64,000 nt of DNA from Mobula hypostoma. Taxonomy: Eukaryota. The position numbers and the translations under genes were made by a program. Where the stretch lies: positions 162,132,001 through 162,196,000 of the forward strand of contig NC_086097.1 of NCBI RefSeq assembly GCF_963921235.1, in the 5' to 3' direction. Under the pieces are notes generated by a model. It was not told the DNA's origin, did no database searches, and saw nothing but the letters and a program-made list of their open reading frames with translations. The first letter of the stretch is position 1. Each line of letters opens with the position of its first letter. Shown here piece by piece: positions 9,039 to 61,244 of this stretch.

Positions 9039-9412
9039 ACAAAGGAGGATATTCTTAGTTCACTATTAATGTTTATCTCCTGGAAAGCTGTTTTTTTAGT
9101 TCTCCGATTAAACCAGGGAGGTTTTTTTTCTCATTGATAAAATTACTAATTATGATTGAGTACATGAGTAGACCGGTTTATGATTTTACTTTGCTCAGTC
9201 ATTTAAATTTATCCTCTTTGATATTTCAAGTAAGAGAGTGTTTCAAAGGTTAGTTTTGTTTTGTCACAGTCACACTGGAATTCACTGTTAATTTGATAAG
9301 AGTCATTCTGGAAGTGGACAACAGGAATTCTGCAGATGCTGGAAATTCAAGCAACACACATCAAAGTTGCTGGTGAACACAGCAGGCCAGGCAGCATCTC
9401 TAGGAAGAGGTA

Positions 9413-9450
9413 CAGTCGACGTTTCAGGCCGAGACCCTTCGTCAGGACTA
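9413..9450 (-). ncRNA. Minimal type I hammerhead ribozyme motif
   Basis: Reverse complement reads uaguc-CUGACGA-agg-gucucgg-ccu-GAAA-cg-UC-gacug. Stem I aguc/gacu, short stem II, palindromic minimal stem III. Confidence 0.8.
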
Positions 9451-9695
9451 ATTGAAGGAAGAGTTAGTAAGAGGGAAGAATTTACAGATGGGGAGCAGTG
9501 AGAGATGGTTTCACTGAACTCCCGTCAAAGAGAGGATCTAAACTTCTTCGGTGTAGGCATCACCGGAAGAGGCTTCGCAGTAGTGAATTTAAAAACGCAA
9601 ACAACAGGAATTCTGCAGATGCTGGAAATTCAAGCAACACACATCAAAGTTGCTGGTGAACGCAGCAGGCCAGGCAGCATCTCTAGGAAGAGGTA

Positions 9696-9733
9696 CAGTC
9701 GACGTTTCAGGCCAAGACCCTTCGTCAGGACTA
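9696..9733 (-). ncRNA. Minimal type I hammerhead ribozyme motif
   Basis: Same core as 9413-9450, 283 nt away on the same strand. Confidence 0.8.
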
Positions 9734-9779
9734 ACTGAAGGAAGAGTTAGTAAGAGCTCTTACTAACTCTTCCTTCAGT

Positions 9780-9817
9780 TAGTCCTGACGAAGGGTCTTG
9801 GCCTGAAACGTCGACTG
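9780..9817 (+). ncRNA. Minimal type I hammerhead ribozyme motif (sense to PTK2)
   Basis: tagtc CTGACGA agg gtcttgg cct GAAA cg TC gactg. Predicted cleavage after 9812. Confidence 0.8.
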
Positions 9818-10344
9818 TACCTCTTCCTAGAGATGCTGCCTGGCCTGCTGCGTTCACCAGCAACTTTGATGTGTGTTGCTATTCTGGAAGTGGGCTAGTT
9901 TAGACAAACAGACAAATTTAGACAAACAGATAAATTCCATTATGGATTCCTGCAAGGATGAGTTTTCTGGAAAGTGACAGCATAGTCAAGGATTTTGTAA
10001 AATAAAAAGGGTTAGAAATTATTTGCAAAGAAAGATTAAAGGTAATTTTTTTATTAAAAAGAGCCAATTGCAGATTTTCTGGACAATATACAAGGGATAA
10101 TTAAAATTAGCATGGATGCAGGTATTGAAAGGTGGCCAGTAGTTAGTAAAAAGAGTGTCAAATCTGCACATACAGAGATCTTGGAGGGCATAAGAGAAAG
10201 GAGAGTAGCTACTCTCCTTTAGCTAAAGAAAGAATTTGGCCAGGAAAGGGCTAGGTGGAGAGTTGAGTGAAGATCCATAAGAGCTTTTCTCAGTGGGTTA
10301 GTGATGAAAAATAAGTGGTATTAAATGACTAGATTTAATACTAC

Positions 10345-10760
10345 AAAATAAAAGCTGCAGAGGGTTGTAGACTCAGCCAGTTCTGTCATGGTCACTAGCC
10401 TTCTCACCATCAGGACATCTTCAAAAGGCAGTGCCACAAGAAGGCACCATCCATGATTAAAGACTGTCACCATCCAAGCCATCCCCTCATCTCATTTCCG
10501 CCATCAGAGAGGAAGTACAGGAGCCTGAAAAAGCACACTCAATGGTTCAAGAACAGCTTCTTCCCCTCTGCAATTAGATTTCTGAACCGTCTATGAACAC
10601 TACGTCACTACTTTGGTTTTTGTCAATATTTATTTGTTGTCTTTACATTTCTTACTTAAACCTGTAGAATTTTTTTTATGTATTGTACTGTACTGCTGCT
10701 GCAAAACAAAAAAAATTAATGACATGTGTCAATGATAAATAAACCAGATTCTCATTCTGA
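10345..10760 (+). mobile_element. Rex1/L2-like LINE 3' fragment (decayed)
   Basis: ccatcagagaggaagtacaggagcctg...aacagcttcttcccc, as in the other Rex1-like copies. AATAAA near 10737. Confidence 0.6.
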
Positions 10761-11081
10761 GAATTGGTTGAATATCTTGGCCTTCATGACAGAGATTGCC
10801 ATGAGTTCCATTTTCTTGTTGGAGTTGAGGGTGGAGATTTATATATGGTAGATTGGTTGAAGAAAATAGCTTACAGAAGAAGAAAGAAGCCAGGGATTAT
10901 TCCAGCATAATCTTAGAACAATGAATGTTTTTGGCTTGTCAGAGGGAGGTTTGAAAACAAAAATGTCGAAGTGACTGTAAAGCACTTAGCTGATGATGTG
11001 GAAATCAGTAATGAGGAATGAGGCATCTGCTCAGACCTCTGCTGTCAGAGTTTTAATTCAATTTTAAAGGAAATGTTGATA

Positions 11082-11430
11082 CAGGTGTCCCCTGCTTTTC
11101 AAACGTTCATTTTATGAAACCTCGCTGTTACGAAAGACCTACATTAGTTAGCTGTATTCGCTAACAGAAGGTGTTTTCACTGTTATGAAAAAAGGCAGCG
11201 CGTGCCCCGAGCAGCCAAGCTCCTCCCCCGGAACTGCATTCTAGCCGGCATTGCTTAAACACGTGCCTGTGAGCAGCCGTTAGCAAGATGAGTTCTAAGG
11301 TATCAGAAAAGCCTGAAAGAGCTCGTAAGGGTGTTACACTTAGCGTAAAACTAGACATAATTAAGCGTTTCAAGATAGAAGAAGATGACCTGCCTGCCCT
11401 GATGGAAACAGATGGCGATGAGATGACACC
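11082..11430 (+). mobile_element. Tigger/pogo-like DNA transposon left end
   Basis: TA|CAGGTGTCCCC terminus. ORF 11288 MSSKVSEKPERARKGVTLSVKLDIIKRF resembles the CENP-B/psq-type N-terminus of pogo transposases. Confidence 0.65.
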
Positions 11431-11589
11431 CCAGTGGTCCCAACCTCCGGGCCACGGACCGATACATTGCCACGGAGAATGCAGCGGTAGCCGGGACTCA
11501 CCCAGCACATCTTTAAGAAAAGAGCTGAAATAAACAAGCTAATTAATTAGGTGCCGCCCAGCACGTAAATGTCGGCCCAGATCAGTGGC

Positions 11590-12402
11590 GAAAAGGGGGA
11601 GGGGGGGAAAAACCCAGAGGATGGGCAAGGGGTATAGTCAGAGGGACAGAGGGAGAAAAAGGAGAGAGAGAGAAAGAATGTGTGTATATAAATAAATAAC
11701 GGATGGGGTACAAGGGGGAGGTGGGGCATTAGCGGGAGCTAGAGAAGTCAGTGTTCATGCCATCAGGTTGGAGGCTACCCAGACGGAATATAAGGTGTTG
11801 TTCCTCCAACCTGAGTGTGGCTTCAACTTTACAGTAGAGGAGGCCGTGGATAGACATATCAGAATGGAAATGGGATGTGGAACTAAAATGTGTGGCCCAC
11901 TGGGAGATCCTGCTTTCTCTGGCGGACAGAGCATAGGTGTTCAGCAAAACGATCTCCCAGTCTGCGTTGGGTCTGGCCAATATATAGAAGGCCACATCGG
12001 GAACACCGGACGCAGTATATCACTCCAGCCAACTCACAAGTGAAGTGTCGCCTCACCTGGAAGGTCTGTCTGGGGCCCTGAATGGTGGTAAGGGAGGAAG
12101 TGAGCAATAAAGAGATCCAGAGCAGGCAGAAGACCAGAGTGGGGTGTCCATGAAGAGGAGGAGGGTTGAAGACGGGAGAAGGGGTCATCGGTGGGGGTGG
12201 AAGAGTCCTGTAGCAATAAAGAGATCCAGAGCAGGCAGAATAGCAATCTCCTATCATTTTGGATCTCCCCCTCCCCCTCCCACTTTCAAATCTCTTACTA
12301 GCTCTTCCTTCAGTTAGTCCTGACGAAGCGTCTTGGCCCAAATCGTCGACTGCACCTCTTCCTAGAGATGCTGCGTTCACCAGCAACTTGGATGTGTGTT
12401 GC
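11590..12402. mobile_element. Penelope-like element with inverted arms (minus 11590-12102, plus ~12247-12402)
   Basis: Minus-strand GIY-YIG VIYCVRCSRCGLLYIGQTQRRLGDRFAEH. Plus-strand pseudo-LTR piece with degenerate hammerhead at ~12315-12352. Confidence 0.85.
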
Positions 12403-12462
12403 ATCTATCTAAATATCCCTGTTTTGAGGCAAACCACAAATGTTCACTGAACTTTGTTGAGG

Positions 12463-13025
12463 AACACACACAAAATGCTGGAGGAAGGAACTCAGCAGGC
12501 CACGCAGCATCTATGGGAAGAATCAACGATTCGAGCCAAAACTCTTGATTACGTCTGGAAAGGATGGGGAAAAAACTCAGTATTCGAAGCTGCAAGGAGG
12601 GGAAGGAGAACAATCTAGAAGGTGATAGGTGATGTCAGGTGAGTGGGAGAGAGGGGATTGAATTGAGAAGCTGGGAGGTGATAGGTGGAAAAGGTAAAAG
12701 GCTAACAAAGGTGGAATCTGATAGGAGAGGAAAGTGGACCATAGGAGAAAGGGAGAGAGGAGGAGCACCAGGGGTAGGTGATAGGCGGATGAGGAGAAGA
12801 TAAGAGGGAAACCAGAGTGGGGAACGGGGGATGGGGAAAAAATTACGAGGAAGATAGAGAGATCAATGGTCATGCCGTCAGGCTGGAGTCTACCCAGGTG
12901 GAATATGAGGTATTGCTCCTTCAACCTGAGTGGCTTCATATGGCAATAGAGGAGACCATGGACCAACGTGTTGAAATTGCAATGGGGATTGGATATAAAT
13001 GGTTGGCTACTGGAAAATCCTGCTT
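12463..13025 (-). mobile_element. Penelope-like element 3' fragment (older subfamily)
   Basis: ORF 12577..12966(-) VHGLLYC...EQYLIFHLGRLQPDGM. Confidence 0.8.
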
Positions 13026-13059
13026 ATTGACCATCTGCAGAATCTCTTCTGTTTAATGC

Positions 13060-16270: not shown

Positions 16271-16277
16271 GACCTCA

Positions 16278-16535: not shown

Positions 16536-17304
16536 AGAATCAGTTAGTACCTGAGAGGGAAATATCCACGGGGAGAAGAGCAGGACAATGGAATTGATGG
16601 GGGTGCTTTAATTGATGGACTAAATGGGTTAAAAAAGACTATTGCCAGTTGCATGTACAGCAATTGCATGAAAGTGAAGGGAAGAGATTTGCTCAAAATG
16701 AGTGTCAGGCAATATTTTCACCAAGGTTGGGTTCTCAAACTGAGAACATCTGGACATAGTTTTTTGATGAACAAATATAATTTATTTGCTATTAGTGTTC
16801 ACTTCTGTGCTAGCATCATTCACAATTCCAGCTGTGGAAAACTTACTGGCACCCATTTGGGCCTTTTGTAATGCTTCTGAATTACAAATTATAGTCACTT
16901 TCTTGATGGATTTGGTATCTTTGTTTTGAACCATGATACACAATTGAAATATTATTATTTTACTGGAAATCATCGAATATTTTTGTGAAATTATTTTCAA
17001 AATGAAAAAGGAAACAAATATAAATAAAAACAAATTTCACTAATGCTTTCCTCACTTCAGAATAATTAGACTAAAAGAAAATGGCAATGATGACCATGTG
17101 AATCTAACATAAAAGTAGATGAAAATTTGAAATAAGATGTAAATGGTCACCTGTTGTTGATCTAAAATAGTTTTTCTGCAATTGCTGCCTGGCCTATTAA
17201 CTTTTTCCAAGGTTTTTTATTTTAATTTGGTTAACTTGTTTGCCTACAAAGACTTGAACCTGCTCTACTATTGAACAACATTATGACTGATCTTGTGCCT
17301 CAGT

Positions 17305-19603
17305 ATACCTTGCACATGATTTGGTATTGGGAAATGAACCTGGTCAGGTGTCAAATCTCTCAGTGGGAGAGCATTTTGGGGATAGTGATCATAATTCTAT
17401 CTCCTTTACAATAGCATTGGAGAGAGATAGGAACAGACAAGTTAGAAAAGCATTTAATTGGAATAAGAGGAATTATGAGCCTATCAGGCAGGAACTTGGA
17501 AGCTTAAATTGGGAACAGATGTTCTCAGGGAAAGGTGCAGAAGGAATGTGGCAAATGTTCAGGGGATATTCGTGTGGAGTTCTACATAGGTACATTCCAA
17601 TGAGACAGGGAAGTTATGGTTGGGTACAGGAACCGTGGTGTACAAAGACTGTAGTAAATCTAGTCAAGAAGAAAAGAAAAGCTTACGAAAGGTTCAGAGA
17701 GCTAGGTAATGTTAGAGATCTAGAAGATTATAAGGCTAACAGGATTAGGAAGGAAATTAAGAGAGCCAGAAGGGGCCATGAGAAGGCCTTGGCGGGCAGG
17801 ATTAAGAAAAACCCCAGGGCATTCCACAAGAACATGAAGAGCAAGAGGGTAAGACATGAAAGAATAAGACCTATCATGTGTGAAAATGGGAAGTGTGTAT
17901 GGAACCGGAAGAAATAGCAGAGGTACCTAATGAATACTTTACTTCAGTACTCACTATGGAAAAAGATGTTGGTGACTGTAGTAATGATTTGCAGCAGACT
18001 GAAAAGCTTGAGCATGTAGATATTAAGAAAGAGGATCTGCTGGAGCTTTTGGAAAGCATCAAGTCAGATAAGTCGCCGGTACCAGAAGAGATGTACCACA
18101 GGCTACTGTGGGAGGTGAGGCAGAAGATTGCTGAGCCTCTGCAGATGATCTTCATATCATCAATGGGGATGGGAGAGGTTCCGAAGGATTGGAGGGTTGC
18201 AGGTGCTGTTCCCTTATTCAAGAAAGGGAGTAGAGATAGCCCAAGAAATTATAGACCAGTGAGTCTTACTTCTGTGGTTGGTAAGTTGATGGGGAAGATG
18301 CCAAGAGGCAGGATTTATGAACATTTGGAGAGGCATAATATGATTAGGAATAGTCAGCATGGCTTTGTCAAGGGCAGGTCATGCCTTACAAGCCTGACTG
18401 AATTTTTTGAGGATGTGACTAAACACATTAATGAAGGAAGAGCAGTAGATGTAGTGTATATGGATTTCAGCAAGGCATTTGATAAGTTACTCCATGTAAG
18501 ACTTATTGAGAAAGTAAGGAGGCATAGGCTCCAAGGGGACATTGCTTTGTGGATCCAGAACTGGCTTGTCCGCAGAAGGCAAAGAGTGATTATAGACGGG
18601 TCGTATTCTGCATGGAGGTTGGTGACCAGTGGTATGCCTCAGGGATCTGTTCTTGGACCCTTACTCTTCGTGATTTTTATAAGTGATCTGGATAAGGAAG
18701 TGGAGGGATGGGTTAGTAAGTTTGCTGATGACACAAAGGTTGGGGGTGTTGTGGATAGTGTGGAGGGAAGTCAGAGATTACAGCAGGACATTGATAGGAT
18801 GCAAAACTGGGCTGAGAAGTGGCAGATGGAGTTCAACCCAAATAAGTGTGAAGTGGTTCATTTTGGTATGTCAAATATGATGGCAGAATGTAGTATTAAT
18901 GGTAAGACTCTTGGTAGTGTGGAGGATCAGAGGGGTCTTGGGGTCCGAGTCCATAGGACGCTCAAAGCAGCTACGCAGGTTGACTCTGGTTAAGAAGACA
19001 TATGGTGTATTGGCCAACATCAATCATGGAATTGAATTCAGGAGCCGAGAGGTAATGTTGCAGCTATATAGGATCCCACTTGGAGTACTGTGCTCAGTTC
19101 TGATCGCTTCACTATAGGAAGGATGTGGAAACCATAGAAAGGGTGCAGAAGAGATTTACAAGGATGTTGCCTGGATTGGGGAGGATGCCTTAAGAAAACA
19201 GGTTGAGTGAATTCGGCCTTTTCTCCTTGGAGCAACGAAAGATGAGGGGTGACCTGATAGAGGTGCATAAGATGATGAGAGGCATTGATCCTGTGGATAG
19301 TCAGAGGCTCTTTTCCAGGGCTGACATGGCTGCCACAAGAGGGCACCAGTTTAAGGTGCTGGGGAGTAGGTACAGAGGAGATGTAACGGTTAAGTTTTTT
19401 ACACAGAGAGTGGTGAGTGCGTGGAATGGGCTGCCAGCAGCGGTGGTGGATAGGGTCTTTTAAGAGACTTTGGATAGGTACATGGAGCTCGGAAAAATAG
19501 AGGGCTATGGGTAACCCTAGAAATTTCTAAGGTAGGGACATGTTCGGCACAACTTTGTGGGCCGAAGGGCCTGTATTGTGCCGTAGGTTTTCTATGTTTC
19601 TAT
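17305..19603 (+). mobile_element. CR1 LINE (end of endonuclease, RT, 3' UTR), frameshifted
   Basis: ORFs 17321 (GDSDHN), 17893 (NYRPVSLTS, QHGF, PQGSVLGP, FADD) and 19203. tttctatg tail. Confidence 0.95.
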
Positions 19604-20254: not shown

Positions 20255-23200
20255 AAACCATAGAAACCACAGCACAGAAACAGGCCTTTTGGCCCTTCTT
20301 GGCTGTGCTGAACCATTTTCTGCCTAGTCCCACTGACCTGCACACGGACCATATCCCTCCATACACCTCCCATCCATGTAGATTAGATGTCCAATTTATT
20401 CTTAAATGTTAAAAAAGAACCCGCATTTACCACCTCATCTGGCAGCTCATTCCATACTCCCACCACTCTCTGTGTGAAGAAGCCCCCCTAATGTTCCCTT
20501 TAAACTTTTCCCCCCTCACCCTTAACCCATGTCCTCTGGTTTTTTTTTTCTCCCCTTGCCTCAGTGGAAAAAGCCTGCTTGCATTCACTCTATCTATACC
20601 CATCATAATTTTATATACCTCTATCAAATCTCCCCTCACTCTTCTACGCTCCAGGGAATAAAGTCCTAACCTATTCAACCTTTCTCTGTAACTGAGTTTC
20701 TCAAGTCCCGGCAACATCCTTGTAAACCTTCTCCGCACTCTTTCAACCTTATTTATATCCTTCCTGTAATTTGGTGACCAAAACTGAACACAATACTCCA
20801 GATTCGGCCTCACCAATGCCTTATACAACCTCATCATAACATTCCAGCTCTTATACGCAATACTTTGATTAATAAAGGCCAATGTCTAATCCAATTTACC
20901 ACCTCTCCATGTATACCTTGTGACTGAATTTTCCTAACTAACCTCACAAGCAGGACCTTGTCAAAGACCTTACTGAAGTCCATGTAGACAATATCCTTTG
21001 CCTTCCCTTCATCCACTTTCCTGGTAACCTCCTCGAAAAACTCCAATAGATTGGTCAAACATGACCTACCACGCACAAAGCCATGTTGACTCTCCCTAAT
21101 AAGTCCCTGTCTATCCAAATGCTTGTAGATTCTGTCTCTTAGTACTCCCTCCAATAACTTACCTACTACCGACGTTAAATTTACCGGCCTATAATTTCCC
21201 GGATTACTTTTCGATCCTTTTTTAAACAACGGAACAACATGAGCCACTCTCCAATCCTCCGGCACCTCACCTGTAGACAGCAACATTTTAAATATATCTG
21301 CCAGGGCCCCTGCAATTTCAACACTAGTCTCCTTCGAGGTCCGAGGGAACACCCTGTCAGATCCCGGGGATTTATCCACTTTAATTTTCCTCAAGACAGC
21401 AAGGACCTCCTCCTTTTCGATCTGTACAGTTTCCATGATCTCACTACTTGTTTCCCTTAATTCCATAGACGTCATGCCAGTTTCCTCAGTAAATACAGAC
21501 GCAAAAAACCTATTTAAGATCTCCCCCATTTCCTTTGGTTGCGCACATAGCTGACCACTCTGGTCTTCAAGAGGACCAATTTTATCCCTTACAATCCTTT
21601 TGCTCTTAATATACCTGTAAAAGCTCTTTGGATTATCCTTCACTTTGACTGCCAAGGCAACCTCATGTCTTCTTTTAGCCCTCCTGATTTCTTTCTTAAG
21701 TAGTTTCTTGCACTTCTTATACTCCTCAAGCACCTTATTTACTCCCTGCTTCCTATACATGTCATACAACTCCCTCTTCTTCTTTATCAGAGTTGCAATA
21801 TCCCTTGAGAACCAAGGTTCCTTATTCCTATTCACTTTGCCTTTAATCCTGACAGGAACATACAAATTCTGCACTCTCAAAATTTCTCCTTTGAAGGTTT
21901 CCCACCTACCGATCACATCCTTCCCAGAGAACAACCTGTCCCAATCCACGCTTTTTAGATCCTTTCTCATTTCTTCAAATTTGGCCTTCTTCCAGTTCAG
22001 AACCTCAACCCTAGGACCAGATCTATCCTTGTCCATAATCAAGTTGAAACTAATGGTGTTATGATCACTGGAACCAAAGTGCTCCCCTACACAGACTTCT
22101 GTCACTTGTCCTAACTCGTTTCCTAACAGGAGATCCAATATTGCATCCCCTCTAGTTGGTCCCTCTATATATTGATTTAGAAAACTTTCCTGAACACATT
22201 TTACAAACTCTAAACCATCTAGACCCCTAACAGTATGGGAGTCCCAATCAATATATGGAAAATTAAAATCCCCTACCACCACAACTTTATGTTTCCTGCA
22301 GTTGCCTGCTATTCCAATTCTCGTTGACTATTGGGTGGTCTGTAATACAATCCCACTAATGTCGCCATACCTTTCCTGTTTCTCAGCTCCACCCATAAGG
22401 ACTCAGTAGACAAGCCCTCTAATCTGTCCTGCCTGAGCACTGCTGTAATATTTTCCCTAACAAGCAATGCTACTCCCCCACCTTTCATTCCTCTGCCTCG
22501 ATCACATCTGAAACATCGGAACCCTGGAATATTAAGCTGCCAGTCCTGCCCTTCCTGTAGCCAATTTTCACTAATTGCTATAACGTCATAATTCCACGTG
22601 TCAATCCACGCCCTCAACTCATCCACCTTCCCTGCAATACTCCTAGCATTGAAATATATACACCTCAGAAGATTTTTACCACCACTCACAACCTTTCTAT
22701 TAGTGAATTTGCTTGAACTTTTAACATCATTTATTTTCACCCCAGCCACATTGTCAGCTCTGACACTCTGGTTCCCATCCCCCTGCAAATCTAGTTTAAA
22801 ACCTCCTCAATAGCATTAAGAAACCTCCCTGAAAGGATATTGGTCCCCCTGTTGTTCAAGTGTAACCCGCCTCTCTTGTACAGGTCCCACCTGCCCCAGA
22901 AGAGGTCCCAATTATCCTGAAATCTGAAACCCTGCGCCCTACACCAGTTCCTCAGCCACTTGTTCATCCTCCAGAGCATCCTATTCCTACCCTCACTGGC
23001 ATGTAGCACAGGAAGCAATCCTGAGATTACCACCCTCGAGGTCCTGCTTTTCAACTTCCTACCAAGCTCTCTATACTCACTCTCCAGGACCTCCTCACTC
23101 TTCCTTGCTATGTCATTGGTACCGATGTGCACCACGACATCTGGCTGGTCACCCTCCCACTTCAGAATGTCATGCAAGCGATCAGAGGCATCCTTGACCC

Positions 23201-26300: not shown

Positions 26301-26466
26301 TCGAACAAAAAAGATAGAACGTAGAAATCTACAGCACATTACAGGCCCTTCGGCCAAAATGTTGTGCCGACCATGTAACCTACTCTAGAAATTCATTAAC
26401 ACAGATGGCTGTAGAGGCCAAGTCATTTGATAAATTTAAGGCAGGGGATGATAGGTTCTTGATTAG

Positions 26467-26737: not shown

Positions 26738-27659
26738 CTTGATTAGGAAGGGCATCAAAGGATGTGGAGAGAAGGCAGGAGAATGGAGTTGAACAGGATA
26801 ATAAATCATCTGAGATGGAATAGTGGACCAAATGGCCTGATTCTTCTCCTATTTCTTATGATCTTATGGTCTCTCTATATATGACATGTATGAAAGCAGA
26901 ATTCATGAATGTTCCCGGTGTGACGTATAGAATCTGTTTTTTGTCATTCAGAAATGAAAGTGTGTGGGAGAGGATCACAGAAACAGCTGTAACACACGTA
27001 AAAGTTGCTGGTGAATGCAGCAGGCCAGGCAGCATCTCTAGGAAGAGGTACAGTCGACATTTCGGGCTGAGACCCTTCATCAGGAATAACTGAAAGAAGA
27101 GCTAGTAAGAGATTTGAAAGTGGGAGGGGGAGGGGGAGATCTGAAATGATAGGAGAAGACAGGGTGGGGAGGGGGGATGGAGCCAAGAGCTGGACAGTTG
27201 ATTAGCAAAAGGGATATGAGAGGGTCATGGGACAGGAGGCCTAGGGAGAAAGAAAGGGGGAGAGGGGAAGCCCAGAGGATGGGCAAGGAGTACAGTGAGA
27301 GGGACAGAGGGAGAAAAAGGAGAGAGAGAAAAAGAATACGTACATATATAAATAAATAACGGATGGGGTACGAGAGGGAGGTGGGACATTAACAGAAGTT
27401 CAGGAAGTCAATGTTCATGCCATCAGGTTGGAGGCTACCCAAGCGGAATATAAGGTGTTGTTCCTCCAACCTGAATGTGGCTTCATCTTTACAGTAGAGG
27501 AGGCCATGGATAGACATATCAAATGGGAATGGGATGTGGAATTAAAATGTACGGCCACTGGAAGATTCTGCTTTCTCTGGTGGACAGAGTATAGGTCCAA
27601 CTTCCCCTCGTACCCCATCCATTATTTATTTATTTATTTGTTCTATCTATCTATATATA

Positions 27660-44300: not shown

Positions 44301-45336
44301 TGCCCTCCTTTGCTGACACATTTAGTGCCTTGATGGTGTGCCAATCCAACTGAATTTTCCTGAGCCATTCACGTTCCAGCAACGGTGGTCCTCCATTTTT
44401 CAGTACATAGAGGTTCAGTTGCTGTGTTTTACCTCCGTGGGTCACTGTCACTTTCATTTTGCCTTCGGTATGCACTTTCTGTCCTGTGTAAGTCTTTAGC
44501 AGTAGTTTAGTTCGTTTCAGAGGTATGTGTGAAAACAGTGGTTTTTAGTCGCTTACAGAGATTACTGTTAAGGTTGAACCTGTGCCCAACTCCATTTTCA
44601 GTTTCACGCCTGCCACTTGTGGAGTGATCCATATTACTCTTCGATCATCTGTCTCTTCCACACTGTGGAGTGGCAGACAAGACAATTCACTTTTGTCTGA
44701 GTCATTTTCATCAGAATTGCTTTCTTTCATTTTGTGCACATTGTTGTACTTTCCTTTCTGGGGTTTCTTGTTTCTCTGTATTTTGCCCTTTTCCAGCTTG
44801 CCAGTGTGGCCCTGTTTAGCACAGTTTCGGCATCCTTTATCTTTAAACCAACAACCACCAGGGTCATGTTACCTGTTCCCACAACGGTAACATTTCTTTC
44901 CTTTATTTCTGCACAGTGACATTTTATTCGTAGCATATTCCAGAGATTTTTGTTGTATCTCTGAAGCACCTCATGTGGCTGTTTCTAATGATATTGAGAT
45001 GTTTAGTGCTTTCTCAAATGTAAAGCCTTTTTCACACAGGAGCTTCTTTTGTGTAGTTTCACAGTACATACCGCACACTAACCTATCCCTCAATGTGCCT
45101 GATCGACCGGCTCCAAATTGACAATGTTCTGATAATTAGCGCAATTCAGCACAATATTCAGAAATGCTTTCATTTTTGCTCTGATTCCGTTTATGGAATT
45201 TAAATCTTTCAGCAATGACCAACGGTTTGGGGTTTAAATGCTGTTGGAGAGAGTCTACTATTTGTCCGCTGGCTTTTCAGGAGTTAACAAACTCCGTTAT
45301 TGAGCATGCGGTATATTTTTGTGCCCGTTACACTAA

Positions 45337-47924: not shown

Positions 47925-48479
47925 GTACAGGCTTGGCTATTTTAAAATACCTGATCAGTATTGTGTACCAGTATTCTGGTATTGTTTAATTCCAGGTTTA
48001 ACATAGTGCAGCTTTTCAAATACAGTGGTCTCTATGGCTGTATGACTATGACTCCTATTAACTGTTTTGATGTATAAACATGAAATAATTTAAATGTAAA
48101 TTTGTATGTGCTACTATTTCACATATAATTTTTGCAATACTAGTGACTTCAGGTTTGGTTATGTGCATAATTTTGAATGATTCAGTTGTATATCTCACAT
48201 GCTGTTTGCTTAGGTTTGGATTGAGAACAGTGGCTAAGAGATGTGTATTGTATTCAACATAATGAAATTTCCCCAGGTATCAATCAGATTATCAAACAAA
48301 TTTGACCTAAAGCCCTGATGTTAACGTAGGTGGCTTAAAGATTTGATTAAATGAATACGTTTGATGGAGTATTTTAAAAGTGAGAAGAGAAGTCAGAGAA
48401 TTCATGGGGCAGGCTCTAGAGCTAAGGACTTTGATAGCAAAGGAAGGCACCTTTAAGCTATTAAACACCTTTAATAGCT

Positions 48480-49128
48480 AATGGCATGCTGGCTTTCATA
48501 ACAAGGGGAATTGAGTATAAGAGCAAAGAGGTCCTTCTGCAGCTGTACAGGGCCCTGGTGAGACCATACCTGGAATACTGTGTGCAGTTTTGGTCTCCAA
48601 ATTTGAGGAAGGACATTCTTGCTATTGAGGGAGTGCAGCGTAGGTTCACAAGGTTAATTCCCGGGATGGTGGGACTGTCATATGTCGAAAGATTGGAGCG
48701 ACTGGGCTTGTATACTCTGGAATTTAGAAGGCTGAGAGGGGATCTTACTGAAACATATAAGATTATTAAGGGATTGGACACGCTGGAGGCAGGAAGCATG
48801 TTCCCGCTGATGGGTGAGTCCAGAACCAGAGGCCACAGTTTAAGAATTAGGGATAGGCCATTTAGAACGGAGTTGAGGAAAAACTTTTTCACCCAGAGAG
48901 TAGTGGGTATATGGAATGCTCTGCCCCAGAAGGCTGTGGAGGCCAAGTCTCTGGATGCTTTCAAGAAAGAGATGGATAGAGCTCTTAAAGATAGCGGAAT
49001 CAAAGGTTATGGGGATAAGGCAGGAACTGGATACTGATTGTGGATGATCAGCCATGAACACAGTGAATGGCAGTGCTGGCTCAAAGGACCGAATGGCCTA
49101 CTCCTGCACCTATTGTGTATTGTCTATT
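48480..49128 (+). mobile_element. CR1 3' fragment
   Basis: ORF 48486 MLAFITRGIEYKSKEV...LEYCVQFWSP...WNALP. (tattgtc)n-like tail. Confidence 0.9.
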
Positions 49129-49228
49129 TACTAATCATTAACTGAATAAACTGGGGTATGTGAAAGGCAACATACATCAAAGTTGCTGGTGAACGCAGCA
49201 GGCCAAGCAGCATCTATAGGAAGAGGCG

Positions 49229-49266
49229 CAGTCGACGTTTCAGGCCGAGACCCTTCGTCAGGACTA
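49229..49266 (-). ncRNA. Minimal type I hammerhead ribozyme motif
   Basis: Reverse complement tagtc CTGACGA agg gtctcgg cct GAAA cg TC gactg. Confidence 0.8.
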
Positions 49267-50779
49267 ACTGAAGGAAGAGTGAGTAAGGGATTTGAAAGCT
49301 GGAGGGGGAGGGGGAGATGCAAAATGATAGGAGAAGACAGGAGGGGGAGGGATAGAGCCGAGAGCTGGACAGGTGATAGGCAAAAGGGGATACGAGAGGA
49401 TCATGGGACAGGAGGCCTAGGGAGAAAGACGGGGGGGGGGGTGACCCAGAGGATGGGCAAGAGATATATTCAGAGGGACAGAGGGAGAAAAAGGAGAGTG
49501 AGAGAAAGAATGTGTGCATAAAAATGAGTAACAGCTGGGGTACGAGGGGGAGGTGGGGCCTAGCGGAAGTTAGAGAAGTCAATGTTCATGCCATCAGGTT
49601 GGAGGCTACCCAGACGGAATATAAGGTGTTGTTCCTCCAACCTGAGTGTGGCTTCATCTTTACAGCAGAGGAGGCCGTGGATAGACATGTCAGAATGGGA
49701 ATGGGATGTGGAATTAAAATGTGTGGCCACTGGGAGATCCTGCTTTCTCTGGCGGACAGAGCGTAGATGTTCAGCAAAGCGGTATCCCAGTCTGCGTCGG
49801 GTCTCACCAATATATAAAAGGCCACATCGGGAGCACCGGACGCAGTATATCACCCCAGTCGACTCACAGGTGAAGTGATGCCTCACCTGGAAGGACTGTT
49901 TGGGGCCCTGAATGGTGGTAAGGGAGGAAGTGTAAGGGCATGTGTAGCACTTGTTCCGCTTACACGGATAAGTGCCAGGAGGGAGATCAGTAGGGAGGGA
50001 TGGGGGGGACGAATGGACAAACTCCCTTGTCCATTCGTCCCCCCCATCCCTCCCTACTGATCTCCCTCCTGGCACTTATCCGTGTAAGCGGAACAAGTGC
50101 TACACATGCCCTTACACTTCCTCCCTTACCACCATTCAGGGCCCCAAACAGTCCTTCCAGGTGAGGCATCACTTCACCTGTGAGTCGACTGGGGTGATAT
50201 ACTGCGTCCGGTGCTCCCGATGTGGCCTTTTATATATTGGTGAGACCCGACGCAGACTGGGAGACCGCTTTGCTGAACATCTACGCTCTGTCCGCCAGAG
50301 AAAGCAGGATCTCCCAGTGGCCACACATTTTAATTCCACATCCCATTCCCATTCTGACATGTCTATCCACGGCCTCCTCTACTGTAAAGATGAAGCCACA
50401 CTCAGGTTGGAGGAACAACACCTTATATTCCGTCTGGGTAGCCTCCAACCTGATGGCATGAACATTGACTTCTCTAACTTCCGCTAGGCCCCACCTCCCC
50501 CTCGTACCCCAGCTGTTACTCATTTTTATGCACACATTCTTTCTCTCACTCTCCTTTTTCTCCCTCTGTCCCTCTGAATATACCTCTTGCCCATCCTCTG
50601 GGTCACCCCCCCCCCGTCTTTCTCCCTAGGCCTCCTGTCCCATGATCCTCTCGTATCCCCTTTTGCCTATCACCTGTCCAGCTCTCGGCTCTATCCCTCC
50701 CCCTCCTGTCTTCTCCTATCATTTTGCATCTCCCCCTCCCCCTCCAGCTTTCAAATCCCTTACTCACTCTTCCTTCAGT

Positions 50780-50817
50780 TAGTCCTGACGAAGGGTCTCG
50801 GCCTGAAACGTCGACTG
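50780..50817 (+). ncRNA. Minimal type I hammerhead ribozyme motif (sense to PTK2)
   Basis: tagtc CTGACGA agg gtctcgg cct GAAA cg TC gactg. Confidence 0.8.
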
Positions 50818-51037
50818 CGCCTCTTCCTATAGATGCTGCTTGGCCTGCTGCGTTCACCAGCAACTTTGATGTATGTTGCTTGAATTTCCAGCATCTGCAG
50901 AATTCCTGTTGTTATGTGAAAGGCAAAATGTGTATAGATCATGGAAGATTGAAAAACAGTAAGTCCTAGACATTCAGCCCAGAAACAAGACATTTTGCCT
51001 ACCATGCTCCTATTGATCATCGTGTATTCACCTATAC

Positions 51038-51469: not shown

Positions 51470-52446
51470 CAGTGGCATGCAAAAGTTTGGGCACCCCTGG
51501 TCAAAATTTCTGTTACTGTGGATAGTTAAGCGAGTAAAAGATGAACTGATTTCCAAAACGCATGAAGTTAAAGATGACATATTTCTTTAGTATTTTAAAG
51601 CAAGAAAACTTTTTTGATTTCCATCTTTTACAGTTTGAAAATAACAAAAAAGAAAAAGGGCCTGAAGCAAAAGTTTGGGCACCCTGCATGGCAGTACTTA
51701 GTAACACCCCCATGGCAAGTATCACAACTTGTTTTTTGTAGCCAGCTAAGAGTCTTTCAATTCTTGTTTGGGAGCTTCTCGTCCATTCTTCCTTGCAAAA
51801 GGCTTCTAGTTCTGTGAGATTCTTGGGCCGTCTTGCTCTTTTGAGGTCTATCCACAGATTCTCGATGATGATTAGGTCAGGGGACTGTGAGGGCCATGGC
51901 AAAACCTTCAGCTTGCACCTCTTGAGGTAGTCCATTGTGGACTTTGAGGTGTGTTTAGGTTTGTTATCCTGTTGTAGAAGCCATCTTCTTTTCATCTTCA
52001 GCTTTTTTACAGACGGTGTGATGTTTGCTTCCAGAATTTGCTGGTATTTAATTGAATTCATTCTTACCTCTACCAGTGAAATGTTCCCCGTGCCACTGGC
52101 TGCAGCACAAGCCCAAAGCATGATTGATCCAACCCCGTGCTTAACAGCTGGAGAGGGGTTCTTCTCATGAAATTCTACACCCTTTTTTCTCCAAACATAC
52201 CTTTGCTCATTGCGGCCCAAAAGTTTTATTTTAACTTCATCAGTTCACAGGACTTGTTTCCAAAATGCATCAGGCTTGTTTAGATGTTCCTTTGAACCTT
52301 CTGAATAGAACAAGAATTGAAAGACTCTTAGCTGTCTACAAAAAGCGTTCACAAGCTGTGATACTTGCCAAAGGTGGTGTTACTAAGTACTGCCATGCAG
52401 GGTGCCCAAACTTTTGCTTCGGGCCCTTTTGCTTTTTTGTTATTTT
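51470..52446 (-). mobile_element. Tc1 (IR/DR type) transposon fragment with partial transposase
   Basis: TA|CAGTGGCATGCAAAAGTTTGGGCACCC end, with the internal DR repeated at ~51669. ORF 51513..52220(-) VKHGVGSIMLW, QQDNKPKHTS, WPSQSPDL..IENLW. Confidence 0.9.
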
Positions 52447-55720: not shown

Positions 55721-55794
55721 ATTGTGTTAATTTCGTCCAGAATTGTATAGTTTAAATATGATTTGAAAATCAGAAGTAACAACTCAAGTAAAAA

Positions 55795-56752
55795 TGTAAA
55801 CAGAAGAAATTCTGCAGATGCTAATCCAAACCAACACACGCAAGATGCTGGAGGGACTCGGCCGGTCAGACAGTATCCACGGAAATGAACAAACAGTCAG
55901 CATTTCAAACCGAATCTCTTCTTTAGGACTAGAAAGGAAGGGGAAGCTGCCAGAATAAAAAGTTGTGGGGAGGGAAAGAAGGATAGCTATAAGATAATAG
56001 GTAAAGTGGGTGGGGAAGTAAGTTAAAGGGCTGGAGAGGAAGGAATCTGATAGGAGAGGAGAGTGAACCATAAGAGAAAGGACAGGAGGAGGGGCATTGG
56101 GGGGAGGTAATAAGCAAGTGAAAAAAGGTAAGAGGTCAGGGAGGAATAGAAGAAGTGTGGGGGGGGATTTTTTTTACCAGAAGGAGAAATCAATATTCAT
56201 GCCATCAGGTTGGAGGCAGCTATGGACCCAACATATAATGGAAATGGGAATTAAAATGTTAGGCCACAGGGAAATTTCGCTTTTGGTGGATGGAGTGGAG
56301 GTGCTCGACAAAGCGGTCCCCCAATTTATGGTGGGGCTTGCCTATGGAGAGGAGGTCCCTTCAGGAGCACTGAGCACAATAGATAACGCCAGCAGATTTG
56401 CAGGTGAAGTGTGGAAAGATTGTTTGGGGCCCTGGATGGAGATGAACGATCAGGGGTAGCACTTCTACTTGCAGGAATAAGTGCTGGGGGGGAGATTAGT
56501 GGGGAGAGATGAATGGACAATGGAATCCCTGCAGAAAGCGGTGTGAAAGGCAGAGGTAAAGATTTTTTTGGTGGTAAGATGCTTTTGGAAATGGCGGAAG
56601 TTGCAGAGAATGATGTGTTGGATGCAGAGGTTGATGAGGTAGTATGTAAGGACAAGAGAACTCTATCACTGTTAAAGTGGCGGGAAGATGGGTTGAGCAC
56701 TGTTATCCAAGAAATGGAGGAGATGCAGGTGAGGGCAGTATTAATGGTGGAA
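55795..56752 (-). mobile_element. Penelope-like element 3' fragment (decayed)
   Basis: Minus-strand similarity to the PLE copies at 37725-40205 and 5715-6720. Confidence 0.8.
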
Positions 56753-59029
56753 GCTCAGGTAAAAATTGAGTAAGCTGTTTATAAATTTCATACTGGGTGT
56801 CTAGGATCTCATTTGCAATTTCATTAGTCATTGGTAAAGATTGTAAGAGTAATGCATTTTTACTTTACTAATTTATGCTGTTCTGCTACTTTAATCTGCT
56901 TTGTGTGTCTGTCTGCAGTTAGCCCCTTGGCCATCTTTGCAACACAGTTTTAGCTTGGACAGTCTTTCCTTTCCTGATTTCTCCCAGCACAACACCAAGT
57001 TTTGCTTAAGTCTAGAACAGACATCAGTTTATAAGCATCCATTCTGTGCATCAACGTCAGATAGGTATTTTACTATACAACCTCAGCCCAGGCCTTCTGT
57101 GCCCCCTTCAGTTTATGGACTAGGGGCATGTACCTTTCCATTTTGACAGGCTGAACATAAATCTGTAGTGATAACTGATGTCTGAAGAATGGAGAAGAGA
57201 CCAAGTAGAAATAATGTTTAGGAATCTTTGTACAAAGGAATATAGCATCTTTTTTGTCATAAAGTTCATAATGAATATCAATTAACAAAATGGTGAAAGA
57301 CAGTTGATAATTTATGAAGTATTTTAAATTTTACATCAGCCATATTAGGTAGGAATAATGTTTTTGATTATCTTTATAATTCAATGCTACTAGTTCAAGA
57401 AAAGTCACCATTTGTGTTTACTTTTCTCTTTTAACTGAGAAAACAGGTGTATATGCAGAGGTGAGAATAATTAAATTCCTACTATTATAGACCTATCACT
57501 AACTTTACTAATTTAACCTCTCTATACTACTTACATCAGCTACTTTTTTTTAACTGGTACATTGTACTGGCTTACTTTCACCTCAGAAAACCAATTTTCC
57601 TTCACCACTTTTTATGAGGTAGTATTTTTGTTGGTGTTAATTGGTGATCTGAAATCAGGAGCTTACCATGTCAGGAAATTGAGAGCAAGTTCATTTTATA
57701 ACACTCTGACACAATACTATCAGAACACCCTTTTTTTTACTGGTAGAGTTCTCTTAAAAATATATTACAGCTACAACTTTAAGGCAGGATTTGTGTCAAT
57801 CCCTGATTAACATGTGGATCTCCTCTGTTGACCACATTATTTGTTCATTATTTGAAATTATTTTAGTAGTGTTAGTGGTAATTATCACTCACATAACTAC
57901 AGCAAAGTAACCACAATTGTTGGATGCTAAATTTAGAAATCACAAAACGTTGGTGTGAAAAGTGTTAAAGTATTGCACTTTACAGAAGCTGGTGAGGAGG
58001 CAAACTGTTTTAACACCAAAAAAAAGTCTTAATTGTAATTAATTTTTGTACATAGAATCTGTTAATACTCAAAGGGGATCACCAATGTTTTCATTTGTGA
58101 TATTGCTGTAGAAAGTTTAACCACTTGATAAATTTGCCTTAAATTGTCTTTCTTTGAGTAACATCTTTTTCTTTGAGTGAAATGGAGGAACTAATGTTTA
58201 ATATAACCTAGCATTTCAGTTATGGTGCTCCCTTTGACACAGAATTTGTTACTTTTCATTCATCATTTAGTTTATTTTGTATTATAGATCTATCAGGTTC
58301 CTGTTTGAAGAAATCATGTTTTAATATGTGCAATTTCATGATTTTCTTACCAGTATCAAAGCTACTAATGGAATATAAAATTGGCCCTGCTTTACTGTAA
58401 AAAGCATGTGTAGCATATAGAGAAAAAAAGCTCTATTATACCATATATAGTATGAATACTGACTGTAGTTCATGATTGTGTGATTTTTATCTGAAAGCAT
58501 CATAAATACATATATGAATATTTTAAAGGAAAAGTTGAGCATTGCAATCTCTGCTCTTAAATTCCATTAGCAAAAATTTCTTTTATTTTTAAACATTGCC
58601 CTCAACCTGTATATGTTATCAGTGAATGTAGCCTGTGTAGAATCAACTGATTTTAGCTAAGAGACTATTATGCTATTGGAATTGACCTTTGTAGCTCTTG
58701 CTCAAGGAATTTAGAGGGATGGAAATCAGTTAAATTTCCTATCCGATGTTCTTTACAGTATGGTGCAGTGTGAGAAGGATGGACCCTGCCATGATTACCC
58801 ATTATCAAGTTCCCTGTCATGATTGAGCCATTTTGTGGTTTACGTCAAAGTTGTATCAAAAATACTTCTGAATTTTATTACTAAAGACTGAAGCAGTAGA
58901 AGACTGATGAGAAAACCGTGCGAATTTTGTCTAAAAGCCAACAGTCTAATCAAAAATTCCCAAGTTCCCAGAAAAAAAATACTGACCAAAATCAGATCTC
59001 CAAAGGACTATCTATTCAAACATAACTGC

Positions 59030-59560
59030 TGTTTAAAATTGTAGTAAGACTATATTTGGAGTATTGCATGCAGTTCTGTTCATTGCATTTTAGGAAGGTT
59101 GTTAAGGCTTTGGCAAGGGTGCAGAAGAGGTTCACCAAGATGTGAAAGTTGTGACCTGTATAGCAATAAGGAGAGGTTGAATAAAGTTGGAATACTTTCT
59201 CTAGAGCTGATGGGGACAACGTGATCAAAGTATATAAAACTATGAGGGATAGATAGGGTAAGTAATCAGTCTTCCTGACTTAGAGTAGAAATGTCAAATA
59301 CTGAAGCCATAGCATTGAGGTGCAGGGGAGAGTGTTTAAAGGAGATTAATAAGGCAGGTCTCTTTACCCAGAGTGGAATCTGCTGCAGTGGGAGGTGGTG
59401 GGAGCAGTACAACAGTAATTTTATTGCAAAGGGTATTTGGATGGGTATATGGACAGGGAGGGAATAGAAGGATATGGACCTTGTGCAGGCAGGTCGAATT
59501 GGTTAGATTAGCATGGTTAGCACAGACATGGTTGGCCAAAGGTCTGTTCCTGTACTGTTA
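59030..59560 (+). mobile_element. Old CR1 3' fragment
   Basis: gagtattgcatgcagttctg...gtgcagaagaggttcaccaagatg and CR1-type 3' UTR. Confidence 0.6.
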
Positions 59561-60633
59561 CATGTAAGTGGCTTTTTAATAACTTTGAGGCCGACAACAC
59601 AAAAATAGGCCCTTTTGCCAAACAAGTCTGTGCTGATCATTAAACATTCATCTGAGCCTATGCTAATCTAATTTTATTCTCCAATCTATTCCAAACACTT
59701 TGTTTTGTTGAAAATCCAGATCTATCTAATTGGAGCTGAGAAGGTTAAGGGATTATTGATAAAGATGTTAAAATCAAGGATTGTTGAGGTCAAATGGCTA
59801 AAGGGAAATTTCATGTCAAAAGTACTAGCAACTATGACACAGAAGAACCAACGCAAAGGTGGCAAGCAAATTCTGTAATAACTTCAAAGATGAATTATAT
59901 AAGTACTTGAAGGGGAAAAAGAGAAGTGAAATTTATTGGAAAGGTCCTTCAAAGACCTTTCTTTTAAAAGGAGGGGCCAAGTGCTACTGTATCAATCTGT
60001 TAACCAACATTTTTTTAGGTAGAGAAAAGAAATGCTATTCAGGAAAGCTACTTGTAATATGTCTTGGTTTCATGGTATATCAAAATATACCTTGTTAGAT
60101 TGAGTAGCAATGCATTCTTAAGCTTGCCAAAAGAAACTACCATCATGTGCATGACTTTAAAACATATAATTATTTTATTAAATTTGCTTTAAACAGATTG
60201 CATGTTTTCCTTTTTATGCTTCAGGAGAGTCCAAATATAACACTTGAAAAGGTTTTTTTTTAATGAACAATGAATTATTACTGCATTTCATAGAATTAAA
60301 TATACTTTATTTGCTAATTAATTGCAGAGATTGGCATCTCAATTTTTGCTCTTATCGCTTAACTGTCATGAATGAAAAATTGACATAAATAATGCATCAT
60401 TTTAAAGTTGTACAGATGTTATTTATACAACTTAACATGAAGCCATGTAAGCCAAGCAGTACAATATTCAAACTGGATATATCAAAATCTATGTCCTGTC
60501 TGCATTACTGAGATAAACAATTTTCTTTCATACTTTGTGCACACATCTGTACAGTACAGTTACTTAGCCCTACAATTATTGATATTATTTGCGGTGTATT
60601 CCAACTGATGTTTGTTCATTTCTTCTACAATAG

Positions 60634-60720
60634 CCCAGTCGACCTGGCTACCCAAGCCCAAGGTCCAGTGATGGGATTTTCCCCAGTCCTCAGCATATGG
60701 TGCAACACAATCATTATCAG
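60634..60720 (+). CDS. PTK2: PTK2/FAK coding exon, proline/serine-rich region
   Basis: ttctacaatag| acceptor, phase 0. Encodes PSRPGYPSPRSSDGIFPSPQHMVQHNHYQ (human PSRPGYPSPRSSEGFYPSPQHMVQTNHYQ). Donor cag|gtaaat. Confidence 0.96.
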
Positions 60721-61001
60721 GTAAATAACAGATGTCATAAATTATTTCAAATGCAAGATAACTCATGTCAAATAGAACAATACTGAATTTGAAACTTGTC
60801 CCTCTCAGTTAATTAACTCATTATTGCAAAACATCATTACTGCCCTACACCCTGGACTGTTTTCAGTGAGAGTGAAGATGACCAAACTAAACGAATTGAA
60901 GATTGCATAGTCTCAATATCAGTTATATTGTGGAAATACATGAAAAGGAATTCTAGATTTCCCCAAAATTTATATCACTGAACTGAACACAGGCTATTAC
61001 A

Positions 61002-61055
61002 AAAACAACAGGAATTCTGCAGATGCTGGAAATTCAAGCAACTTTGATGTATGTT
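61002..61055. mobile_element. 54-bp Penelope remnant (both ends of a fold-back insertion) between TSDs
   Basis: acaacaggaattctgcagatgctggaaattcaAGCAACtttgatgtatgtt, flanked by acaggctattaca (60989-61001) / acaggttattaca (61056-61068). Confidence 0.8.
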
Positions 61056-61244
61056 ACAGGTTATTACAGTAGTATTTCTTTTTCTATTAGTTGTTCTGGT
61101 ATATTAACTTTGACCCTGAGCCCAGAGAATAAGGAACAGGTAGATTTTCCATGTGTGTTACATTCTCTTTCCATGTGCTTATATTTATATCGTGATTTTC
61201 TTGCAGCCGAGTAAACGTTAGAACATTGCTATTAAGTTCTATAA

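Follow-up and report, generated by a model that had tools for sequence, protein, structure and literature searches.

Head-to-head insertions of a Neptune-type Penelope-like element in Mobula hypostoma: a probable origin by priming from both ends of the target

Five young insertions (numbered 1 to 5) of one family were found in a 64,000-nt stretch of the Mobula hypostoma genome, hereafter the window. They are head-to-head, 5′-truncated copies of what is almost certainly, judging from its coding and ribozyme sequences, a young Neptune-type Penelope-like element (PLE) of a batoid. The best explanation overall, and in our view a probable one, is that they were made by two-ended target priming. The two-armed layout itself is ordinary and already published for the PLE class, so the architecture is not new; the window adds only small mechanistic clues. 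The origin of the tandem and inverted ends of PLEs is still called open in both PMC8557442 and PMC11167929.

Layout, target site duplications and fixed ends

Published EN+ PLEs have direct pseudo-LTRs (pLTRs), an adjacent inverted and 5′-truncated pLTR, palindromes at the inverted junction and one target site duplication (TSD) (PMC3846280, PMC8557442 Fig. 2), with a tail of 30-40 bp at one end only (PMC3846280, PMC8557442). The corresponding features found here are partial tandem pLTRs, an inverted 5′-truncated copy, a tail at one end and, in four of the five insertions, a TSD. The coordinates bear out the plan that the first-pass annotation had proposed for insertions 1 to 4, namely that one flank carries the tailed 3′ end, the opposite flank an inverted arm without a tail, and a TSD of 13-14 bp encloses the whole. 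The TSD is exact in three of them (13 bp, 9305-9317/9881-9893, insertion 1; 14 bp, 26977-26990/30108-30121, insertion 2; 14 bp, 49157-49170/50913-50926, insertion 3) and 12/13 identical in insertion 4 (60989-61001/61056-61068, by eye; a scripted search gave the exact 7-bp part only). When 20,000 random pairs of window positions were searched for a matching 13-mer with at most one mismatch and 5 bases of slack, a single pair matched. The fifth inverted pair (11590-12402), described earlier as having no visible TSD, yielded none when 9900-12300 was searched. No target motif common to the four TSDs is evident by eye, and all four are ordinary sequence, without microsatellite bias; the microsatellite preference of Neptune is a tendency in the literature and not a strict criterion.

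The tail-less arms of insertions 1 to 5 end, in that order, at −32, −35, −33 to −37, −35 and −33/−34, counted from the base at 50912. All five ends thus lie within one 6-base stretch, close to the 30-35 nt short of the 3′ end that had been estimated, and this stretch falls inside the 3′ strand of the AGCAAC/GTTGCT hairpin near which the arm had been said to stop. In a post hoc test, five uniform points would span six positions or fewer with P=9e-6 if 155 positions are considered and P=7e-4 if 50 are. About 32-39 nt separate the tailed from the tail-less outer end, both of which are fixed. Microhomology of more than one base at the tail-less end was absent in four of the five young insertions. 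The centre is a near-symmetric palindrome in two of the five only (9318-9880 and 49167-50912).

Insertion 1 (9305-9893) has the order pLTR, 127-nt read-through, pLTR and inverted pLTR. The left TSD copy (9305-9317) is followed, on the minus strand, by a distal pLTR with tail (9318-9473; hammerhead core 9419-9445), a read-through past the tail (9474-9600) and a proximal pLTR with tail (9601-9756; core 9702-9728), and then, on the plus strand, by the inverted tail-less arm (9757-9880, −155 to −32; core 9785-9811) and the right TSD copy (9881-9893, from the TSD search and the empty site). All three pLTR copies start at the same base (−155). The inverted arm is identical to the proximal pLTR at 124/124 positions with no spacer between them and no native self-complementarity at the centre, and these two share a derived letter that the distal pLTR does not have. 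The read-through probably stems from the 5′ portion of the coding region; it is single-copy in the window, yet a high-depth repeat in all 4 runs, and it gave no match to a profile of 44 distant full-length proteins. A check for empty sites, carried out for this insertion, confirmed the 13-bp TSD in another organism: in an organism C contig (run X12, record 9), 9304 is joined to 9881 and the TSD is left once. A second empty site, with a small local loss, was present in X14. The empty sites, and the TSDs of four of the five insertions, speak for integration in a single event.

Insertion 2 (26977-30121) consists of a left TSD copy (26977-26990), an inverted tail-less arm on the minus strand (26991-27596, ending at −35), a tailed arm on the plus strand (27597-30107) and a right TSD copy (30108-30121), both TSD copies coming from the TSD search. 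The tailed arm is split into two pieces (27597-27659 and 29712-30107) by a later nested element (27660-29711), which has 10-bp terminal inverted repeats with TA on both sides, makes up about 2.05 kb of 26991-30107, and is DNA-transposon-like and foreign to the Penelope event. Neither this element nor the one to the left of 11590 had a Pfam match, and a comparison of two frames of the nested element showed nothing; both may be Tigger-like. On the 5′ side the tail-less arm exceeds the tailed one by about 205 nt, and the arms differ at 27/352 positions.

Insertion 3 (49157-50926) comprises a left TSD copy (49157-49170), an inverted tail-less arm on the minus strand (49171-50020; hammerhead core 49235-49261), a tailed arm on the plus strand (50021-50912), which is 6 nt longer at the centre and whose tail runs to 50912, and a right TSD copy (50913-50926, TSD search). 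The plus-strand arm carries the coding end of the GIY-YIG endonuclease (50026-50487, from Pfam and translation), a hammerhead core (50785-50811, motif search) and the AGCAAC/GTTGCT hairpin (50859-50880, from sequence and folding). Over 853 aligned bases the arms differ by 3 substitutions and 1 gap. In the span previously given, 49167-50912, the first four arm letters are also the last four of the TSD, so that the arm may start at 49171.

Insertion 4 has a body of only 54 bp (61002-61055) between its TSD copies (left, 60989-61001, 13 bp with one mismatch to the right copy; right, 61056-61068; both by eye). A minus-strand tail (61003-61042), 38/38 identical to that of the youngest copy, shares an AGCAAC (61037-61042) with the short arm that it adjoins, which lies on the plus strand and stops at −35, and this tail-less arm carries the hairpin loop, which is absent from the tailed arm. 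In insertion 5, a left arm on the minus strand (11590-12102, about −797 to −298), missing its 3′ end, tail and TSD copy, is followed by a minus-strand centre (12103-12240) and a plus-strand tail-less arm (12247-12402, −200 to −33). The centre, bounded by a 29-nt direct repeat (12103-12131 and 12212-12240), comes from a part of the element's own reading frame that lies upstream of the reverse transcriptase (RT). It matches positions 222-254 of 892 in the protein profile (score 15.8; best control 3.5), with a pairwise E of 5e-8, and is a template-jump product.

With its tandem pLTR and read-through, 9318-9880 is no simple fold-back. The several stages of decay that had been suggested are not supported for most copies: the size differences stem from primary truncation, a template jump and the nested 2-kb element, and decay may be the cause only where the copy is 54 bp long and where 11590-12402 is missing its left end.

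Probable priming from both target ends, and competing explanations

According to the explanation that we prefer, the element protein would cut the two strands of the target at points 13-14 bases from each other, and either of the ends so made would prime one cDNA on the element RNA. One cDNA would start at the far edge of the tail and the other at its near edge, and the two would then be joined at their inner ends. By inference, the two start sites served opposite target strands in one event, the 13-14 base stagger goes back to a dimer of the protein, and end joining produced the centre. Taken on its own, the two-ended priming step is somewhat likelier to be right than wrong. According to PMC11167929, PAc, a Poseidon element of Anolis carolinensis, cuts and extends both target strands in vitro, with the same start sites on both and a predicted dimer; the two internal start sites bracket the tail, like the two ends here, the hammerhead lies upstream of them, and the RNA continues past the tail. 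The PAc start site is described as an AC-rich stem-loop, whereas the ray site, read on the sense strand, is U/G-rich and has a weak hairpin.

Both nicked strands priming on the template had been one of two options put forward by the first-pass annotation, and it fits best; the other, snap-back, needs extra later deletions in two of the five insertions. According to that second explanation, which we consider rather unlikely, the tail-primed cDNA folds back and the RT recopies it, and a sequence-specific stop, an endonuclease cut or second-end capture sets the end of the copy at the tail's near edge. Each arm of insertions 2 and 4 holds sequence that is missing from the other. As the tailed arm lacks the 5′ sequence of the tail-less arm, snap-back of a tail-primed cDNA cannot have copied it. 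The two cDNA ends of insertion 4 would pair with each other along 6 bases, and at the tail-less end of insertion 3 the target top strand ends in 4 bases that agree with the template. In insertion 1 the inverted arm goes no further than the first tail boundary, at 124 nt, and does not run on to the neighbourhood of the target junction, at about 405 nt; its end is thus set by sequence. The centre of this insertion, with neither spacer nor native self-complementarity, and the common start base of its three copies also favour priming from both ends. Where insertions 1, 2 and 3 have their centres, microhomology that could have primed snap-back does not go beyond 1-2 bases, and the fixed end is already accounted for by the second start site seen in vitro (PMC11167929).

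Other observations are as snap-back predicts and count against two-ended priming: the centre of insertion 1 departs from perfect symmetry by 0 nt and that of insertion 3 by 6 nt, and the longer arm of insertion 5 is on the (lost) tail side. The absence of microhomology at four of the five tail-less ends, and the different make-up of the start site in the Poseidon element studied in vitro, also weigh against two-ended priming. PMC8557442 also suggests that the tail arises from endonuclease resolution of an intermediate. The 124/124 identity and shared derived letter in insertion 1 speak for snap-back too, although the letter fits copying from adjacent DNA, later conversion or a tandem template. 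Longer symmetric palindromes with later asymmetric deletion, a course established for palindromes generally, could likewise give insertions 2 and 4. With only five insertions in one window, the clues favour priming from both ends over simple snap-back, short of proof.

A symmetric, fixed-stagger form of the two-ended reaction, in which insertion 1 would be a single 283-nt RNA copied three times, is a tentative extension. The first pass would run from the tail start to the 5′ end, an end-to-end jump would begin a second full pass, and the third, launched from the opposite strand of the target, would begin at the tail's near edge and run off at the same 5′ base. If true, each of the in vitro start sites would belong to a different target strand, and one reaction would explain tandem pLTRs, a one-sided tail and perfect palindromes.

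Self-priming on an antisense RNA template, before or during integration, was put forward in PMC3846280 for head-to-head palindromes, and we regard it as improbable for this family. In PMC11167929, PAc copies sense RNA from internal start sites coinciding with its genomic ends; the sense read-through of insertion 1 and the upstream-frame jump of insertion 5 are also simple on a sense template. It is more improbable still that all five began as long symmetric palindromes and differ now through later decay. The 54-bp copy is the product expected from deletion between two AGCAAC direct repeats within a longer palindrome, and insertion 5 has lost its left end; but the tandem of insertion 1 is in exact register, insertion 5 holds a templated piece of distant reading frame, the length of insertion 2 is due to the nested element, and the tail of the 54-bp copy matches the youngest copy throughout. 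That the palindromes are assembly or read fold-back artefacts is hardly credible. In a comparison with contigs, which covered insertion 1, none of the 32 contig pieces listed crosses its centre, and those at its outer junctions cross by only 23-25 letters against a 31-letter bridging rule. But X1 contigs reproduce both outer junctions with 0 differences, the element being in opposite orientations at the two, and organism B has the left junction as well; the empty site lacks precisely the insertion plus one TSD copy, the arms of insertions 2 and 3 differ in sequence, and artefacts do not create TSDs.

Family identity, known systems and older copies

A Penelope-like family with a GIY-YIG endonuclease and minimal hammerheads had been proposed, and a Pfam match and five hammerhead cores agree with it. 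The endonuclease matches PF01541 at 24.1 bits (cut-off 22.6) and is 95% identical to a Mobula protein and 89% to a Hypanus protein; its translation contains VIYCVRCSRCGLLYIG, an endonuclease of GIY-YIG type at the C terminus, in which cysteines lie between GIY and YIG. It is preceded by the linker CKRNKCYTC (CX4CxxC), and a CX2-5CxxC motif occurs in 44/44 full-length RT-EN relatives examined. This linker defines Neptune, is common to Nematis and is absent from Penelope/Poseidon (PMC8557442), so that the ray family differs from Poseidon in having it; a preprint found only Neptune and Poseidon among vertebrates. In the close relatives P0001 and P0007 the RT is joined to the same type of endonuclease, and none of the young window copies reaches the RT. 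The putative minimal hammerhead core (motif as defined in PMC4209133) matched five times on the coding strand of the pLTR and never in 100 shuffles. No Rfam hammerhead was among the 30 matches, all of which were palindrome-driven miRNA/UTR models below gathering scores. The hairpin at 50859-50880 is weak, as 11/200 shuffles fold equally well, and around the two ends there were no consensus pairs across 10 copies and single-fold z-scores of +0.4 to −1.8. An exact-pattern scan for further copies found 0 stretches in viral, metagenome and prokaryote genome contigs.

The earlier inference of a stereotyped mechanism keeps its basis in the narrow TSD length and the fixed end of the inverted arm, but was overstated, since the layout is already the published standard for the class and the fixed tail-less end matches the second PAc start site. 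Pen2a_Av/Pen2_Av of the rotifer Adineta vaga (PMC3846280) show the same unit, and insertion 1 is a miniature of Pen2a_Av. The rotifer TSDs are 8-10 bp, compared with 13-14 bp here, and the ray family differs further in its cartilaginous fish host and non-microsatellite targets. PLE TSD length is variable (PMC8557442); PMC9977147 contains nothing on it. Animal non-LTR retrozymes (10.64898/2026.07.22.740005) consist of short units in tandem whose type I hammerheads derive from PLE termini. Insertion 1, with two hammerheads 283 nt apart, has a unit of this form, but there are only about one and a half units, the second being partial, together with an inverted arm and a TSD, and the junction between units (9473/9474) is crossed by none of the 32 contig pieces listed. 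The second primer of LINE-1 lands upstream on the RNA, so that the arms do not overlap, whereas both arms of the ray family start at the 3′ module and give overlapping mirror arms. LINE-1 twin priming likewise involves second target priming and the joining of two cDNAs by microhomology (PMC10760644).

None of eight older copies has an inverted partner within 3 kb, and inversion is not obligatory for the clade in this window. One older copy retains RT and then EN remnants in order (about 37800-39850). When 7 older ends were scanned for TSDs, a repeat at 38054/40231 was rejected because it falls inside the reading-frame remnant, and a single credible one emerged, of 13-15 bp (55781-55795/56752-56766; 12/13 or 13/15 identical), which flanks a non-inverted relative on the minus strand (55781-56766).

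Being young and abundant, with clean targets outside microsatellites and with close relatives that keep empty sites, the family is well suited to settling by counts how PLEs make their tandem and inverted ends. Its insertions seed near-perfect palindromes of up to about 0.85 kb per arm, and such palindromes may act as fragile sites.

Target duplications, arm ends and family of the insertions

It is well supported that the five young Penelope-like (PLE) insertions in the window are real: insertion 1 (9318-9880), insertion 2 (26991-30107), insertion 3 (49167-50912), insertion 4 (61002-61055) and insertion 5 (11590-12402). When the tailed arm of insertion 3 (50024-50912), carrying the element 3' tail, was used as a BLAST query against the window, every arm listed in the first-pass annotation was recovered. 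The target site duplications (TSDs) of 13-14 bp claimed there for four insertions are exact in insertions 1, 2 and 3 (13, 14 and 14 bp, respectively), and reading of the sequence gave a 13-bp flanking repeat with one mismatch for insertion 4. A flanking repeat was also sought at insertion 5 and none was found, in agreement with the earlier reading. Among 20,000 random position pairs, one yielded a comparable repeat.

Counting back from position 50912 (register 0), the tailed ends lie at registers 0, +2, 0/+1 and +2, and the ends of the inverted, tail-less arms at -32, -35, -33 to -37, -35 and -33/-34. All of the tail-less ends fall within the 3' strand of a hairpin (50859-50880), bearing out the proposal that the inverted arm has a fixed end point. 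Five uniformly placed points would cluster this tightly over 155 positions with a probability of 9e-6, the test having been chosen after the data were seen.

The tailed arm of insertion 3 codes for a GIY-YIG domain. Its product shares 95% identity with a protein of Mobula and 89% with one of Hypanus, which places the host among the batoids. It contains the linker CKRNKCYTC, a motif kept in 44/44 aligned full-length relatives (the best 46 of 85 matches, minus two with foreign domains); according to PMC8557442, such a linker marks Neptune and Nematis. The minimal hammerhead core, a motif treated in PMC4209133, occurs five times in the window on the coding strand and in none of 100 shuffles; an Rfam search did not detect the hammerhead of the insertions.

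The insertions follow an already known layout, of which they are ordinary examples. PMC8557442 gives an adjacent inverted truncated copy with a one-sided tail of 30-40 bp as typical and PLE TSD length as variable, and PMC8969392 repeats this layout as curation guidance. In the elements of PMC3846280, two direct pseudo-LTRs (pLTRs) are accompanied by an inverted one, a 31-bp tail may be present, palindromes are common at the junctions, and TSDs measure 8-10 bp. Among other sources, PMC10760644 treats LINE-1 twin priming, the preprint 10.64898/2026.07.22.740005 treats retrozymes, and PMC9977147 offered nothing informative for comparison. Titles and abstract openings, in a search outside which lay most subscription journals and Repbase, yielded no treatment of two-ended priming in PLEs or of TSD length in cartilaginous fish. 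In the parts of the literature compared, only the narrow TSD range and, in insertion 1, the shared first base of three pLTR copies (see below) are without a match.

Insertion 1 in four sequencing runs

Contigs of four runs (X1, X5, X12 and X14, from organisms A, B, C and E, respectively) were aligned to 8960-10370, a region containing insertion 1 alone among the five. Record 9 of X12 matches 9035-9304 and 9881-10363 with zero letters between, and is the empty site of insertion 1 with the 13-bp TSD present once. Insertion 1 is also absent from record 16 of X14, which has 9 letters in place of the expected 27. Contigs of X1, perhaps the source sample, are identical to the window over both the left and right junctions, entering the insertion by 23 and 25 letters, respectively, in opposite element orientations, and in X5 the left junction is crossed by 24 letters. 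These X1 and X5 crossings (23-25 letters) fall below the bridging rule of 31 letters, and the centre of insertion 1 is crossed by none among the 32 contig pieces listed. As an empty site and junction contigs of opposite orientation were both found, reads support both the TSD and the inverted layout of insertion 1, the insertion that the aligned region covers. Insertion 1 (9305-9893) appears common to organisms A and B and missing from C and E, and could therefore be used as a presence/absence phylogenetic marker.

Anatomy of the insertions and their proposed priming

In element sense, insertion 1 consists of the inverted tail-less arm, a pLTR, a 127-nt read-through and a pLTR with the tail. 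The read-through has one copy in the window, yet each of the four runs contains it as a high-depth repeat; its longest frame has a stop codon absent from most copies in the runs. Register -155 is the first base of all three pLTR copies; if copying of a tandem template stopped at random, such a shared start would, by simple arithmetic, be a coincidence of ~1 in 283. The inverted arm, which stops where it meets the first tail boundary, shows 0/124 differences from the adjacent pLTR, and the distal pLTR differs at 3/156 positions.

Insertion 2 measures ~1.06 kb after exclusion of a nested 2.05-kb element (27660-29711; 10-bp terminal inverted repeats, TA flanks), and the 5' reach of its tail-less arm exceeds that of its tailed arm by ~205 nt. 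Within the nested element, the right part (~28995-29701) resembles a further element inserted at the right terminal repeat; it has a short match to 11432-11465. The arms of insertion 3 differ by 3 substitutions and 1 gap, its centre is 6 nt, and the final four TSD bases match the element too. In insertion 4, the tail is joined to a short inverted piece via a common AGCAAC. Insertion 5 has lost its left end; at its centre, bounded by a 29-nt repeat, lies a segment of reading frame that the element itself carries upstream of RT (profile score 15.8 vs 3.5 for the best control). The seven bases directly before its tail-less arm (12241-12247) repeat 12211-12217 and may be likened to a short templated filler at the junction.

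The simplest reading of the window, and one that we hold to be somewhat more probable than not, is two-ended priming, with both cut target ends priming cDNA on the element RNA. Each nicked target end would prime at one of two RNA start sites, and the two cDNAs would then be joined. For a lizard Poseidon element, PMC11167929 shows cutting and extension of both strands and reverse transcription beginning at two sites inside the RNA, one on either side of the tail; the protein is predicted to be a dimer. Two-ended priming is favoured because: each arm of insertions 2 and 4 holds sequence that the other is without; the inverted-arm end of insertion 1 is set by sequence rather than by distance to the target; and the centres give little homology for priming. 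Against it, snap-back, in which one cDNA folds back and is recopied, also fits insertions 1, 3 and 5, and the private sequence in insertions 2 and 4 could stem from later asymmetric deletions; we regard snap-back as unlikely. Also counting against two-ended priming, the hairpin at 50859-50880 is weak, a search for a conserved fold found none, and the insertions number only five.

Older relatives and neighbouring repeats

A profile search gave 17 pLTR-like matches in the window, nine within the five insertions and eight older. An inverted partner within 3 kb was found for 0/8 older regions (one region is at the edge of the window, and decay may have erased old partners), and thus inversion marks the young subfamily in the window (5/5), not every copy. 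One of the eight has a 13-15 bp flanking repeat, the second copy of which adjoins the 5' end of its own reading-frame remnant, so this TSD length is common to a non-inverted relative. Two older Penelope-like copies (820-888 and 12402-12470) have in common a different tail and ~30 further bases, at 88% identity; as the right end of insertion 5 is exactly where this match breaks off, the insertion lies in or against the end of an older relative. In the longest older Penelope-like remnant (~37800-40228, + strand), an N-terminal piece is followed by RT and then GIY-YIG pieces, with several frame breaks.

Other putative repeats lie in the window. Long frames at 7547-8950, 17291-18993, 20427-22806, 40791-41312 and 48465-49037 resemble CR1/L2-type LINE RT remnants, and a broken frame run at 41448-44868 (- strand) has the look of a Gypsy-type LTR retrotransposon polyprotein. 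Frames at 32289-33090 (+ strand) and 51513-52244 (- strand) look similar to Tc1-type transposase remnants.
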